Shown: positions 7,076 to 60,950 of the stretch, piece by piece
How positions within the stretch are numbered: position 1 is the stretch's first letter
How the letters are laid out: each line of letters begins with the position of its first letter
Origin: Octopus vulgaris
Lineage: Eukaryota
Direction: 5' to 3'
Assembly (NCBI GenBank): GCA_951406725.2
Contig: OX597818.1
Location: 117,924,001-117,988,000 of the forward strand
DNA length: 64,000 nucleotides
Program-made: the position numbers and the translations under genes
The notes under the pieces: model-generated
Databases searched by the model: none
Seen by the model: the letters and a program-made list of their open reading frames with translations, nothing else
What the model was told of the DNA's origin: nothing

Positions 7076-7145
7076 GTGGTTTGCATCAACCACCAGAAAT
7101 GGACAAATATTTACATAAACAGCACTGATAAGAAAAGTTTATAAA

Positions 7146-7350
7146 GTTCTATATTTAAGAGATGAGGAATTATTTACGTTATTTACATTTGACGTATATT
7201 TGTCCTCATCTAGTTTGTTGTTAATACAACGTTTCGGCTAATATACCCTCATCAGGTGCCTTCGGGAAATTTTGACTGATATACCCTCAGCAAGAACCTG
7301 GGTTCTCATTGCTAAGGTATTTATAGATGTTATTATTATTATTATTATTT
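7146..7350 (-). mobile_element. 3' part of the tRNA/(AAT)n/HHR element
   Basis: Reverse complement reads (AAT)n...GGCAC CTGATGA GGGTATATTAGCC GAAAC GTT GTATT...CAAATGTAAATAA; homologous to 8423 and 12620. Confidence 0.8.
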
Positions 7351-8094
7351 TCCTATGGCGGTTTTGCTTATTCTACCTTAAACTTTCTCTTAGGTTATAT
7401 TATTTCACTTGGCTTTTTTTCTGAGTAAGGGAGAATATAATGATTAACGTCACTTATACTTAGTGTTATCATTATACCTAAAACCCTAACTACAGTATAT
7501 AACGTCATAGAGACATATACACATGAAACGCTATGAATATTAATGACATGTATGTTGATAAGAAAATATAAATTAAGATGTACAGAAGTGCATACTTATT
7601 TATGCTCAGTTGAAAAACAAACGTGAAGAGAAATATTTTCTTTTAATTAGTTTTATTATATAAATATAACATTTTATATTATTTACAGTAGGAAAGAAAG
7701 ATAACTTTGTCGTGTAGAAGAACGACTATAAATTCATTAACTAATTTCTTAATTCTAACTAATACATTCACAAACAAATCAAAATAGACTTGTGATTAAC
7801 TTTAGACATGGCATGAAAATTACCGAAGTCTCAAAAGAGTGAGTGTCGTGGAGTTCAGTGACATCCAACAAACACTGAAGTTTTTCCCAAAATCCAGGGT
7901 TTTTATAACTGCTCAACTTGACTAAAAAGTATCGAAATCCATGACAAATATTCTTTACGAAACTTTTAGAATCTTTATATGAGCAGTTATATTAACCAAT
8001 GAAAAAAAACGAAAATAATAATTCGTCGGCAAAAACATTACGTCATATTGCCAATTCACGCCATATTTCAAAATGGCTAAAATGGTTATTGCTA

Positions 8095-8124
8095 CATTAT
8101 TATTGTTATTATTATTATTATCAA

Positions 8125-8196
<72 letters not shown>

Positions 8197-8422
8197 GGTC
8201 AGTGCCTGGAATCGCCATATGTCCGTGGGCAATTATGGAGTGAATTTTAGAGCTTGTACATCTAATATTTTCCTACCCTTCCTTAATACCAGTTCCCATA
8301 TGCTGCTTATATCTGCACTCGGTCTGCTTAGGAGGTTGTTGTGTCCTAGCATATGTGCTGTTTCTTTTAGTTTTCGCATTTTCCGGTGGTGTTCTGTGTC
8401 TAGTATTTTAACTTCTGTTGGA
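8095..8422 (-). mobile_element. PLE endonuclease C-terminal fragment followed by a deleted tRNA-like segment and (AAT)n
   Basis: Minus frame EVKILDTEHHRKMRKLKETAHMLGHNNLLSRP resembles the PLE GIY-YIG C-terminus. It is followed by GGACATATGGCG|ATTCCAGGCACTGACC and (AAT)n. Confidence 0.6.
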
Positions 8423-8524
8423 ATGTGGAGTAGTGGATAAGAGAGCGGACTACTAACCCCAAGATTCTGAGTTCTATTCCAAGCAGTTACCTGAATAATA
8501 GTAATAATAATAATAATAATAATG

Positions 8525-8590
<66 letters not shown>

Positions 8591-8614
8591 TTAATAATAA
8601 TAATAATAATATTA

Positions 8615-8680
<66 letters not shown>

Positions 8681-8830
8681 TCGATAAAATACCTTAGGAA
8701 CGAAAATCCAGTTTCGAAATTTCCCCCAAGGCACCTGATGTAGGCTGGAGAGTATACTTGCTGAAATGTTGTGTTAACAACAAACAAGATGAGGACAGGT
8801 ATCAGTCAAATGTAAATAATGTAAATAAGA
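8423..8830 (+). mobile_element. tRNA-like head + (AAT)n + degenerate HHR element, inverted relative to the adjacent PLE fragment
   Basis: TGGAGTAGTGGATAAGAG..GGACTACTAACCCC..AGTTCTATTCC head, (AAT)n at about 8494-8677, and an HHR-like motif at 8730-8775. Confidence 0.8.
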
Positions 8831-9242
8831 TGAGTTTACTTCAGTACCAATATGATTTGAACGCACAACGTAAAGCCTTGGAAGGAAATGAATCTAAGGA
8901 TTTCGTCTTGCGTGAGGTACCGGTATCGATACCCAGATTCTCCACGTTATCATTCATAGGCGCAGGAGTGGATGTGCACGCTGCAATTGTTTCCGTTCCA
9001 GCACACGATCTCAGATCAGGTCACTTGCTATGCAGGTACATCTCCGGACATATTTCAAAAGTACGATACAAGAGTAAACCATGAGTGATCAATAACGAAA
9101 GAAATATAGTACGATAACATTTTATAACATGGATTTCTTCTTTTCGTCTAATCCGATAAACTAGCTTAATATCTGCATTAATTTAAAGAGTGTTTATAGT
9201 AATGTAGCTATGTAATTTATTTATTTATTAAAACATATCATA

Positions 9243-12619: not shown

Positions 12620-12709
12620 GACATATGGCGTAGTGGTTAAGAGCGCTGGCTACTAACCCCAAGATTCCGAGCTCGATTCCAGGCAGTGACCTGAATAATA
12701 ATAATAATG

Positions 12710-12751
<42 letters not shown>

Positions 12752-12890
12752 TCGAAAAATACCGAGATTCGAAATTTCCCCAAGACACCTGATGAATGGT
12801 GGAAGGTACATCAGCCGAAACGTGTTAACAACAAACAAGATGTGGTCAAATATCCGTCAAATGCAAATAATGTAAATAATGAAAATAATT
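12620..12890 (+). mobile_element. tRNA-like head + (AAT)n + HHR element
   Basis: GACATATGGCGTAGTGGTTAAGAGCGCTGGCTACTAACCCC..GAGCTCGATTCC, then (AAT)n, then GACAC CTGATGA...CAGCC GAAAC GTGTT at 12784-12826. Confidence 0.82.
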
Positions 12891-26500: not shown

Positions 26501-26900
26501 AGGCGGCGAGCTGGCAGAGTTGTTAACACGCCGGGCGAAATGCGTCGCCGTATTTCGTCAGCCGTTACGTTCTGAGTTCAAATTCCGCCGAGGTCGACCT
26601 TGCTTTTTATTCCTTCGGGGTCGATTAAATAAGTACCAGTTACGCACTGGGGTCGATATAATCGACTTAATACGTCTGTCTGTCCTTGTTTGTCCCCTCT
26701 GTGTTTAGCCTTTTGTGGGTAGTAATGAAATAGGTATTTTGTCTGCCGCTACGTTCTGAGTTCAAATTCCGCCATGTCGATTTGCCTTTCATTCTTCCGT
26801 GGTTGATTAAATAAGTACCAGTTCCGCACTGGGGTCGATATAATCGACTTAATCCGTGTATCTGTCCTTGTTTGTCCTATATGTGGGTAGTAAAGAAATA
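26501..26900 (+). mobile_element. tRNA-derived SINE family C (Nin/Deu-like domain), partial dimer with TSD
   Basis: GAGTTCAAATTCC B-box and TCCTTCGGGGTCGATTAAATAAGTACCAG core, repeated from about 26735. Flanking ATATAATGAAT duplication. Confidence 0.88.
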
Positions 26901-27640
26901 GATATAATGAATTAAATATTTGGATAACAACTATGGGGGATAATATACGATATTATCCTTCATAGTTGTTATCCAAACATTACAATTAATAAAGTATAAA
27001 TCAATATTTAAAAATAGATATCTACCTCTAAATACCTTAAAATCAATGTCTTTTAAACCGGTACAATTTCGTTTCTATGTGTAGTGACATTTGCAGTCTC
27101 AAAGGCATTGATATATAAATAAAAGTTATTGTTCTAAATAACAATCCGGTAATGTTTGAATGAAAGCATAGATACTTTTCCCAAGTTAATGAAATATAAT
27201 AACATCGTACGAGATAGTAAATGGTAAAATCAGGAGGATCTGAAGAGTAGAAACATAACAGAGTAATACATAATTAGAAAAATAAAACAGAACTGGAATA
27301 CTCATTAAGAAAATACACGATTTGTGTTTAAAAAAAAAATCCGAACAAGGAAAATAGATATTGATAAAATAAAATATAGAAGAAAAAAAAAATATTTTCG
27401 AAATATCAAAAATATCAATGAGACGAAGTTAAATAAGAAAATGAACATAAAATATGCGAAGTAATAACGAAAGATGAATAGAAATAAAAGCGAGGCAGCT
27501 TTGGTTGAATATGACACGTATCAATTACTTGTTTCTTAATATTTAAGGATTACGTATTTTGTAATTTAATTTCCACTACATGCTATGTTTTCTTGTACTT
27601 CTTTACGTTCATTCCATTAGAAAGGAAATATTTATGGTTT

Positions 27641-39047: not shown

Positions 39048-39904
<857 letters not shown>

Positions 39905-53020: not shown

Positions 53021-53840
53021 TCTTTTCTACTCTTGGTACAAGGCCCGAAATATTTGGGGATGGTCCATTCGATTAAATCGACCCCAGTACGCAAGTGTTA
53101 CTTAATTCATCGACCTCGGAAGGATGAAAGGCAAATTCGACCTCGGCGGAATTTGAACTCAGAACGTAAAGACAGACAAAATAGAGCTAAGCATTTCGCC
53201 CGGCGTGCTAACGTTTTTTTTTTCTAATTTCTTTATTGCCCACAAGTGGCTAAACATAGAGGGGACAAACAAGGATAGACAAAGGGATTAAGTCGATTAT
53301 ATCGATATCAGTACTTATTTAATCGACCCCGAAAGGATGAAAGGCAAAGTCGACCTCGGCGGAATTTGAACTCAGAACTTAAAGACAGACAAAATAGAGC
53401 TAAGCATTTGGCCCGGCGTGCTAACGTTCTTTTTTTATTTCTTTATTGCCCACAAGTGGCTAAACATAGAGGGGACAAACAAGGACAGACAAAGGGATTA
53501 AGTCGATTATATCGATATCAGTACTTATTTAATCGACCCCGAAAGGATGAAAGGCAAAGTCGACCTCGGCGGAATTTGAACTTAGAACGTAGCGACAAAC
53601 GAAATACCTATTTCTTTACTACCAACAAGGGGCTAATCACAGAGAGGACAAACAAGGACAGACAAACGGATTAAGTCGATTACATCGACCCCAGTGCGTA
53701 ACTGGTACTTAATTTATCGACCTCAAAAGGTTGCAAGGCAAAGTAGACCTCTGCGGAATTTGAACTCAGACCCTGACGACAGAGGAAATACCGCTAAGCA
53801 TTTCGCCCGCCGTGCTAATGTTTCTGCCAGCTCGCCGCCT
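53021..53840 (-). mobile_element. SINE family C tetramer
   Basis: Four GGAATTTGAACT units with an imperfect TSD (TTCAGCGATATCAAATATT / TTCAACGATATCAGATATT). Confidence 0.88.
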
Positions 53841-58796: not shown

Positions 58797-58883
58797 AAGG
58801 GTGAAAAGGAACACACGAGTTGATATATATGAAAAAACAAGTAAAAAATAGAAAATGCTAAAATAATTTTATAGTGAACATTT

Positions 58884-58921
58884 CAGTACCGGTTTCGGTC
58901 ATTTTGAGACCTTTTCAACTG
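58884..58921 (-). ncRNA. Minimal HHR motif (U3-A8 variant) in the 3' pseudo-LTR
   Basis: Reverse complement reads CAG TTGAAAA GGTC TCAAAAT GACC GAAAC CG GTA CTG. Confidence 0.7.
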
Positions 58922-59641
58922 TAACGATTAAATAATTAAATTTAGAAAAATTAGAAGAAAAGTTTTTTTAAAAGAATATTTCTATAGTAGTGTTCAGATT
59001 TAAGTGGCATTCTGCCTTTCTCTGACTCCCTTGTTTGCACTTGTGTGTTCGAGGTAGTTGTGAGTTCTTGGTAGGGTAGTAGAGGGAAGGCTGGTGAGGA
59101 AAGGGGGATGGGAGAATCTGGGAGTGCCCTGATGGTCGTATTTTGAATGGTCAGTGGCGGCTGGCAGTCTCAGTTCAATTCAGGAGAATATTTATATTGA
59201 CAGGCTTGTTTATAGAATTAGCGTATGTGTTATACTAAAAAACATTAGTGACAAACTTAAGGGGTAGGGGGTGGAGAAGAAGAAAAAGAAGAAGAAGGAG
59301 AAGGAGAAGGAGAAGATGACGATGATGGTGATGGTGGTGATGATTATGACGACGATGATGATGATAACGATGATGATGAAGAAGAAGAAGAAGAAGAAGA
59401 AGGAGGAGGAGAAGGAGAAGATGGTGGGGATGATGGTGGCGATGATGATGATGCCGATGATGATGATAACGATGATGATGAAGAAGAAGAGGAAGAAGAA
59501 GAAAAAGAAAAAAACAGAGAAGGGAGAATATGAATGGGTGTAAATATAGCTATGAAGGGGCTGATTAGTAATGGATTCTATGGAGTGTAGTATTTGTGTG
59601 TGTATATATATATTTTTCTTTTATTCTAAAGTTGAGGTATA

Positions 59642-60755
59642 TTAATTGTTTGTCGTAGACCCGTTAAGAAGTGGCTTGTATTTTGTAATAAAGAGATTTT
59701 CTTTACTTATTCGTTGTCTCGAGGTTGTATCGTCCCTAAATTGGTAGAGGGGAAAAATTCTGAAGTTTGGTGTTTTTTTTGTTGGCGCAAGTATCTATGT
59801 GTTGGCTAAAAGCTATTTTTCTGTTTTGGGGAATTTTTATCTGGGATCTGTGCAGGGCCATTCGTTTACGCAAACCATTTTTTGTTTGGCCTATGTACTG
59901 CTCTTGACACCCGGAGCAGGTTAGTGAGTATATTAGGTTCTCCGAAGCACATGTGAAGTTGCTTTTCACTGTAAAACGTTGTCCCTGTTTGAAGGAGAAC
60001 TCAGAACCCTCGATTAGATAGTCGCATATCCCGCAATTGGGTCTTCCATATTTTTTTACTGTCGGCTTCTGTGTTGAAGAGTCAATTCGGGCTTGTGTAA
60101 GGAGACTTTTCATGGATCTAGGCTGTCTTTTGCTTTTTATGATCGTGTGTGTTTGGAGGATTGTGTTCATTCTGTGGTCTTTTTTTAGGAGGGGTATGTT
60201 GTGGAGGATGGTGTCGAAGGCTTCGTTATTGAGAGGGTTGTGTGTGGAGATGTATGGTAAGGCTTTTGGTTGTAAGTTTTTCTTTGATTTGGGATGTCTC
60301 AGTTCCTTGATGTTAAGTTGAAGGGCACGTTGAATGCATTTGTCAATAAGTGAAGGTGGATAGTTCCTGGTGATTAGGGTATCTTTTAGTTCTTGTAGTC
60401 GTGTGTCTATGGTGTTTGCGTTAGAGACTATAGTGCATATCCTTTTTGCTAGATTGAAGGGGATATTCATCCTGGTGTGTCTGGGGTGGCATGAATTGAA
60501 TGGAAGATATTGCTTAGAGTCTGTAGGCTTATAGTATATGTCTGTTTCTATTATATTATTAGCTTTCTTAATGAGGATATCGAGGAAGGGGAGTTGTTGT
60601 TGGCTATATTCCATCGTGAATTGGATGTTTACGTCCAGTCCGTTTAAAATTTTCTGGAATTCTATGAGTTTTTCTATATTTTTATGCCAAAGGATGAAAC
60701 AGTCATCTAGATATCTCTTCCAGTTGTTTTCTATGTAGATGGAGAAAGGGCTGCC
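59642..60755 (-). pseudogene. PLE reverse transcriptase C-terminal half + GIY-YIG endonuclease (one frameshift near 59775)
   Basis: RYLDDCF, LPFLDI, YYKPTD, SCHPRH, linker (Y)GRPNCGIC, NLIYSLTCSGCQEQYIGQT..LRKRMALH; the shifted frame continues KENLFITKYKPLLN. Confidence 0.93.
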
Positions 60756-60863
60756 ATATCAGAGAAAGGCAGAATGCCACTTAAATCTGAACACTACTAT
60801 AGAAATATTCTTTTAAAAAACTTTTCTTCTAATTTTTCTAAATTTAATATTATTTAATCGTTA

Positions 60864-60901
60864 CAGTTGAAAAGGTCTCAAAATGACCGAAACCGGTACT
60901 G
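60864..60901 (+). ncRNA. Minimal HHR motif (U3-A8 variant) in the inverted pseudo-LTR
   Basis: CAG TTGAAAA GGTC TCAAAAT GACC GAAAC CG GTA CTG. Confidence 0.7.
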
Positions 60902-60950
60902 AAATGTTCACTATAAAATTATTTTAGCATTTTCTATTTTTTACTTGTTT

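Follow-up and report, generated by a model that had tools for sequence, protein, structure and literature searches.

The question raised by positions 12620-12890 of this stretch of Octopus vulgaris DNA (the 64,000 nucleotides analyzed are referred to here as the window) is whether a tRNA-like head, an (AAT)n tract and a hammerhead make up a SINE of their own or belong to something larger. The first-pass annotation had taken the unit to be stand-alone, a candidate ribozyme-bearing SINE mobilized by a Penelope-like element (PLE), and each part of the layout it described could be located, all on the forward strand. A head derived from tRNA-Arg(ACG), starting from +4 of the tRNA-like sequence and 97% identical to the family majority, occupies 12622-12693 and contains an A box (12626-12636), an anticodon-like loop (12648-12658) and a B box (12669-12680) in which T54 has become C. 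It is followed by an (AAT)n spacer (12694-12749), the length of which differs among copies, by a segment 5' of the hammerhead (12750-12783) that in the family holds the ATG of an 834-aa ORF, by a decayed minimal type I hammerhead (12784-12826) and by a tail (12827-12880) that runs to the "short" 3' end, the inferred reverse-transcription start site 1. Both strands of stem I (5' strand 12784-12788 and 3' strand 12822-12826) and the core motifs CTGATGA (12789-12795) and GAAAC (12817-12821) are still present, but stem II is damaged. This copy has lost 15 nt including the start codon, 3 nt at the predicted cut site (12821-12822) and the G10.1-C11.1 pair, and because of these losses we predict that it does not cleave. 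Scanned with Rfam, this copy and a cleaner member of the family yielded neither a hammerhead nor a tRNA, the only matches in these two or in the window being microsatellite-driven or due to chance, and ARAGORN called no tRNA across the window.

Two further damaged hammerheads, at 7225-7260 and 8730-8775, had been annotated as separate copies. The damaged motifs exist, but these two sit in the two arms of a single head-to-head insertion at 7145-8828, and the window therefore holds two insertions, not three. The left arm lies on the reverse strand and comprises a tail with a "long" 3' end (an extension of ∼30 nt), a hammerhead with a stem II deletion and the remaining (AAT)n (7145-7345), then ∼750 bp of unrelated DNA that splits the repeat tract (7346-8095), a head with an internal deletion together with more (AAT)n (8096-8224), and finally the 3' end of an RT/GIY-YIG ORF with the spacer that leads into the head (8226-8415, 94% to the family majority), within which a TATA-like site at 8260-8254 is mutated. 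The right arm, on the forward strand (8420-8828), has its head at 8420-8493, (AAT)n at 8494-8677, and a tail that bears a damaged hammerhead and stops at the short 3' end. A probable 14-bp target-site duplication, read off the forward strand, flanks the insertion, the left copy (7128-7141) matching the right copy (8825-8838) at 12 of 14 nt. The left arm thus continues for ∼190 nt into the end of a GIY-YIG ORF, and the family is not a stand-alone one. Elsewhere in the window, direct tandem copies of other repeats are found at 26550-26911 (182 bp), 39219-39475 (128 bp, the two copies being identical) and 53099-53606 (210 bp), and a near-perfect 207-bp palindrome at another locus (L330:882-1089) is probably a miniature inverted-repeat element.

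A search with the ORF-end piece of this left arm recovered 29 other loci, in which the sequence upstream of the head runs on for 204-1,698 nt and translates as RT plus GIY-YIG, the ORF stopping ∼30 nt before the head. When the start of the ORF was used instead, a copy of the unit of variable length was found to precede the ORF in most of 30 loci, and in 18 of 29 part of the hammerhead precedes the start of the ORF, which amounts to a partial tandem pseudo-LTR (pLTR). The majority sequence of these tandems has one open frame of 834 aa, the ATG of which falls between (AAT)n and the hammerhead, so that the frame runs through the hammerhead and tail before entering RT and GIY-YIG; two related proteins begin with an identical hammerhead-encoded peptide. 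The RT domain matches RVT_1 (E 1e-9) and shares 40% identity with an Anolis protein of 836 aa that, by description, fits Poseidon_Ac. The GIY-YIG endonuclease was assigned by alignment to relatives, a Pfam search of an ORF fragment giving no GIY-YIG match, and no Cys-rich zinc-finger linker between the RT and the endonuclease could be read from the translation. Because a linker of this kind sets Neptune and Nematis apart from Penelope/Poseidon (PMC8557442), the octopus element probably belongs to Penelope/Poseidon. The unit is the 3' end, or pLTR, of this autonomous element, and a separate SINE family is not supported.

The resemblance to described elements is close. As in Poseidon_Ac, a single ORF with RT and, at its C terminus, a GIY-YIG domain begins within the hammerhead portion of the pLTR (PMC11167929), and as in this and other Penelope/Poseidon PLEs there are two priming sites separated by a tail of 30-40 nt (PMC11167929, PMC8557442, PMC3846280), an inverted 5'-truncated partner, partial tandems and target duplications of ∼9-15 bp. 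Unlike these elements, the octopus pLTR begins with a tRNA-Arg-derived segment bearing A and B boxes and (AAT)n, and the sense strand of the element is free of TTTT. The pLTR of a rotifer PLE has motifs of the TATA/Inr type, and tRNA is not mentioned in the available portion of that article (PMC3846280). No related loci came from an initial scan of metagenomes or from one of viral sequences. The window also holds a second, unrelated PLE on the reverse strand (58830-60920), a Neptune-like 339-aa piece with GIY-YIG and a Cys-rich linker and with inverted repeats at its flanks; a hammerhead-like motif at ∼58922-58884 within it has U at position 3 and A at position 8, the covarying core reported for Cercyon (PMC4209133).

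The family is large. The genome measures 2.8 Gb in ∼30 large contigs, and 138 stretches of 10 kb sampled at a fixed step (1.38 Mb) contained 16 insertion loci, which extrapolates to ∼32,000 per genome (95% range 18,600-52,700), copies being ∼91% identical to their majority sequence. The genome contains 2,965 exact matches to a 25-mer from the head, well beyond chance (0 for the reversed control), and 297 exact matches to a 26-mer across the ORF-head junction; short copies outnumber ORF-linked ones by ∼10 to 1. The body of the element is 2.67 kb (majority sequence 2,672 nt). The (AAT)n tract is often broken by inserted pieces that part head from tail (L008, L010, L021, L024, L282, L293, L297, L300 and others), and we take these pieces to resemble R4/Dong-type LINEs or other SINEs. 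When contigs of four sequencing runs were compared with a near-full copy, all four covered the family, and in three of them loose ends fall at the two 3' ends; since neither the starts and cuts of an RNA nor its level can be read from contigs, we draw no inference on expression from them.

With the majority sequence in hand, the hammerhead can be judged free of the damage seen in the window. In order, it has a 5-bp stem I, CTGATGA, a single additional A, a 6-bp stem II that begins with a G-C pair, then GAAAC, GT, T and finally stem I's 3' strand, in agreement with the full motif that the first-pass annotation had reconstructed from damaged copies (GACAC CTGATGA A GGCTG..CAGCC GAAAC GTT GTGTT). 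The CUGANGA/GAAA core, the possible absence of which had been raised as grounds for abandoning the idea, is thus present, and the majority parses fully as a minimal type I motif with stems I and II, a palindromic junction and an NUH triplet. Hammerheads of this minimal kind in metazoan PLEs lack stem III and are thought to act as dimers (PMC4209133). The octopus motif shares with them CUGANGA, the extra base before stem II, G10.1-C11.1, the 5-bp stem I, the 6-bp stem II, the missing stem III and the palindromic 15-16 region for dimer pairing, and its architecture does not differ from theirs (PMC4209133). The motif is therefore a minimal PLE-type hammerhead, of which cleavage is a prediction. 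The check with the Rfam model Hammerhead_1, which had been proposed for this unit, gave no match in the copy at 12620-12890 or in a cleaner copy, as expected because the motif has no stem III; across the genome, this model gave 73 candidates, and the best 30 of the 73 all belong to other families. At least three other hammerhead families in the genome score with Hammerhead_1 (L061-L090), with eight hits above the cut-off and one with a very long stem II.

There was no stem covariation to count within the family, and the substitution that most commonly separates subfamilies falls at the free core position N7. Beyond the family, the same layout with other stem sequences is found in 9 of 22 related metagenome PLE loci that have 3' sequence, and the cut triplet, GUU in the family, is also GUU in three related loci. 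The strict core is retained in only 21 of 141 tails. The commonest indel is an in-frame deletion of 3 nt placed precisely at the predicted cut (21 of 155 tails), whereas a loss of 3 nt within the AAC repeat close by affects 4 of 161 tails (P 0.0003, with the copies not being independent events). The deletion at the cut is found with both N7 variants, in both subfamilies, and is present in 8 of 26 ORF-linked and 9 of 60 short copies (P 0.14). It is possible that this deletion is a footprint of cleavage, left when the reverse transcriptase jumped across a cleaved RNA via a 2-nt match, but it could also have arisen by slippage or have spread by shared descent. Nine of the listed tails that lack a head start within 7 nt after the cut; they were not counted as a pile-up of 5' ends there because several of the starts are microhomology junctions.

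The insertions carry the signature of a PLE, which supports the proposed copying by PLE machinery. Tails have two fixed 3' ends ∼25-30 nt apart, and among 255 loci and stretches we found 60 head-to-head pairs and no tail-to-tail pair. Fifty of the 60 combine a long with a short end, nine have two short ends and one could not be classified, whereas pairs of two long ends are absent (0 compared with 10.8 expected if the ends were independent). A target duplication scoring 9 or more flanks 31 of the 60 pairs and only 1.3% of shuffled flanks, so that the search for target duplications, which had been called for, was answered positively. This signature fits the in vitro behavior of a Poseidon protein, which cleaves the two strands, extends both of them and uses two internal sites for priming (PMC11167929), and by analogy the octopus copies may arise by the same two-site priming on both nicked strands. 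The copied 3' ends lie ∼55-85 nt downstream of the predicted cut and, because both are past it, cleavage does not set the ends of the insert. Hammerhead mutants likewise inserted normally in the work on the anole Poseidon (PMC11167929).

At the opposite end of the insert, 5' ends were mapped on arms taken regardless of where they end, from 29 tail-selected loci, 30 pattern-selected loci and the 138 random stretches, with identical local sequences merged and three fold-back junctions set to -7. The 66 arms end at +8 to +43 (23 arms), at -8 to +7 (40 arms) or further upstream (three arms, at -66, -487 and -922), and none ends between -8 and -65. Forty of the 43 arms that reach the start of the head end within 15 nt, with a hard limit at -6/-7; the ends therefore pile up at the tRNA start rather than being randomly truncated, which is the outcome that the SINE proposal had called for. 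Because a small, 10-nt palindrome sits at this limit, we had to consider that no RNA starts at the head and that the reverse transcriptase stalls or snaps back at the palindrome, which alone would give the pile-up. Many of the junctions are indeed fold-backs centered there, and palindromes at the 5' ends of pLTRs are already known in PLEs that have no tRNA (PMC3846280). The second-round repeats, which lie upstream in near-full-length copies, argue against such a block: in 30 loci of this kind, nine of them include the 3' end of the head and six reach +7, and four of these six cross the palindrome and pass the head into the ORF end, compared with 3 of 43 first-round arms (P 0.002, n = 6 being small). 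In addition, many ends lie past the 3' strand of the hairpin, several arms end there with no fold-back, and the interval from -8 to -65 is empty. Taken together, we consider a stall at the palindrome very improbable. Since second-round repeats pass it, the 5' limit depends on the template and most likely marks the 5' end of an RNA; read in this way, the tRNA-derived segment is likely to mark where that RNA starts.

If an RNA does start at the head, the many short copies could be either its reverse transcripts or templates in their own right. In the second possibility, Pol III would act on the internal boxes of the short copies, which would be copied in trans and so behave like a SINE derived from the 3' end of a PLE. 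This view draws on their number (∼10 times that of ORF-linked copies), on the presence in them of both boxes and of the priming sites up to the long end, and on the existence of non-autonomous partners of other PLEs (PMC8557442; bioRxiv 10.64898/2026.07.22.740005). As a SINE would, the copies begin at their 5' end with a tRNA-derived head that carries A and B boxes. However, this head is part of the PLE and not absent from the autonomous partner, and the copies finish not in an A-rich or simple-repeat LINE-type 3' tail but at two fixed sites within the element, with the simple repeat internal. Short and ORF-linked tails (60 and 26, small and query-biased samples) share their variants with no fixed difference, and both core variants and the 3-nt deletion are present in both groups; the N7 variant is found in 11 of 26 ORF-linked and 8 of 60 short tails, a difference that query selection may explain. 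Short copies also lack the upstream TATA-like box, and most pairs include a long-end arm. The anole protein needed ∼55 nt of ORF beyond the start sites for priming (PMC11167929), and by analogy the required stretch would be available here only in tandem copies. We therefore regard an independent SINE life for the short copies as improbable. The short copies are instead read, from these comparisons, as probable run-off products of master elements with a complete repeat before the ORF, of which presumed examples are found in 4 of 29 near-full-length loci, and some may be templates themselves. The best explanation of the copy at 12620-12890 is that it, too, is a decayed single-arm product.

Several features bear on which polymerase would make such an RNA. 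The head lines up, in register and at ∼70% identity, with tRNA-Arg(ACG) genes of the same genome, its first G falling at the mature 5' end, with scores of 67-76 compared with 30 ± 5 for shuffles, in a comparison made with Arg(ACG)-type tRNAs only and with a search pattern that leaned toward tRNA-Arg(ACG). Both the A box and the B box match the consensus, and the tRNA stems are broken. In 35 of 44 ORF-linked alignments a TTTATAA, overlapping the stop of the ORF, is placed at -30/-24 relative to G-6; this TATA spacing is one reported for type 2 Pol III promoters (PMC7279448). Two other loci with similar sequence were noted, a probable tRNA-Arg tandem array with 21 T-arm pattern matches in 15 kb, many of them ∼207 bp apart (G000:C2:211891766-211907106), and a tRNA gene, probably a pseudogene, with an Arg(ACG)-type body and anticodon ACA that ARAGORN called Cys (L322:1492-1565).

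The sense strand, in all its 2,672 nt, has no TTTT and 30 runs of four A. In the ORF there are 0 TTTT runs compared with 3.3-4.4 expected from shuffles (P 0.01-0.02), and no T run is common to more than 6% of copies. As a control we used related loci, a single decayed copy of another PLE not being a fair one, and 18 intact relatives contain 77 TTTT runs compared with 61 expected. A related family with no tRNA head (L342, L358) also has no TTTT in ∼2 kb of ORF, compared with 3.6-3.8 expected, and because of this the T-run signal is modest and not specific. In the same family (L342, L358 and L354), up to 2 kb of ORF carries no run of four T, and the 3' UTR is rich in T runs. No GTTC-type B box was found among those related loci for which 3' sequence was available, and no tRNA was called by ARAGORN in 53 of the 79 related loci scanned.

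The element and its run-off copies could also be as described with Pol II starting from the TATA-like box, the tRNA segment then being a passenger or a structure in the 5' UTR. A 2.5-kb ORF needs translation, which normally requires a cap, and a capped RNA would be easier to translate; the head also contains an upstream frame of two codons. The TATA-like box, ∼30 nt before the 5' limit, would place a Pol II start at about G-6; in 6 of 9 parsed loci of related PLEs, TATA-like motifs precede the hammerhead; and Kojima argues that the autonomous partners of TRIMs with Pol III promoters must use Pol II (PMC10886601). Against this, the A and B boxes have been kept at consensus while the tRNA stems decayed, and the whole unit, including its AT-rich UTR, is free of TTTT, whereas eight of the nine parsed relatives have at least one before the hammerhead. 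The repeat could also serve both polymerases. On balance, we consider transcription by Pol II alone unlikely, and these features of the promoter region lead us to favor Pol III over Pol II with some confidence. The reading that we prefer overall, and hold to be somewhat probable, is that the unit is the pLTR of an autonomous PLE and that its short copies are likely run-off reverse transcripts of a predicted Pol III RNA.

Under this preferred reading, TBP and TFIIIC would be recruited by the TATA-like box at the end of the ORF and by the A and B boxes, and Pol III would start near G-6 and, with no TTTT to stop it, could read the whole unit. The protein would nick both target strands and prime at two internal sites in the tail, as the anole protein does in vitro, and each cDNA would run back ∼250-400 nt to the 5' end of the RNA, where the two cDNAs could be joined by the 5'-end palindrome or by microhomology to give a head-to-head pair inside a target duplication. 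For about 1 arm in 10 the template would have no end at the head and the ORF would be copied; such an endless template might be a tandem read-through, or a circle formed after dimeric hammerhead cleavage and ligation.

A fuller version would have an autonomous coding retrotransposon swap its Pol II promoter for a captured tRNA gene and be read by Pol III from end to end, with an ORF purged of terminators and an uncapped RNA translated through a leader made of the tRNA-like segment and (AAU)n. Strong-stop cDNAs would then insert as SINE look-alikes by the tens of thousands, circles from dimeric hammerhead cleavage and re-joining would template the ORF copies, and the 3-nt deletion at the cut site would be a footprint of that cleavage. 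As a whole, we put this forward only tentatively, as a possibility on the doubtful side.

A PLE with a minimal hammerhead, pLTRs, a tail and an inverted partner is already known. A coding PLE with a tRNA-derived pLTR or a Pol III promoter was not found in the literature searched, with most subscription papers and Repbase outside its scope. Schistosoma's Sm-alpha and Sj-alpha repeats are likewise tRNA-related, short and high in copy number and carry a type I hammerhead (PMC2770079, PMC8490949), but they are described as non-coding and SINE-like or satellite, whereas the octopus unit physically ends a coding PLE. A Pol III promoter derived from a small RNA is also found in the terminal repeat of the TRIMp3 elements Cassandra, Helenus and Ajax, which are non-autonomous LTR elements of 0.3-1.3 kb (PMC10886601), in contrast to the autonomous 2.67-kb octopus PLE. 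Non-LTR retrozymes resemble it in being short hammerhead sequences tied to PLE pLTRs (PMC7229834; bioRxiv 10.64898/2026.07.22.740005) but form head-to-tail arrays, whereas in the octopus family no tail is directly followed by a head (0 of 223 tails); the portion of the bioRxiv article that was available does not mention tRNA, Pol III or octopus. A 2026 annotation of octopus repeats lists Penelope and SINE families and, in its available text, does not link them in this way (PMC13282606).

Three octopus tRNA-derived retroposons, OK, OR1 and OR2, were reportedly described by Ohshima and Okada in 1994, OR1 and OR2 being said to be related to tRNA-Arg, as is the octopus head. The short form may already be catalogued under one of these three names.

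In repeat annotation, this one family would probably be divided between a SINE and a Penelope. Its thousands of short inverted inserts lend support, at the level of the genome, to the model developed in vitro, with two priming sites and two nicked strands. Non-autonomous retroelements are known to have Pol III promoters, and a coding PLE with a tRNA-headed repeat tests the rule, argued in one paper, that their coding partners must use Pol II (PMC10886601); use of Pol III by a retrotransposon that encodes its own enzyme would be unusual. If it is true that Pol III reads this coding PLE, the element would show how a SINE can arise within the very element that serves as its partner, a route from an autonomous element to a SINE that needs no recombination between two elements.
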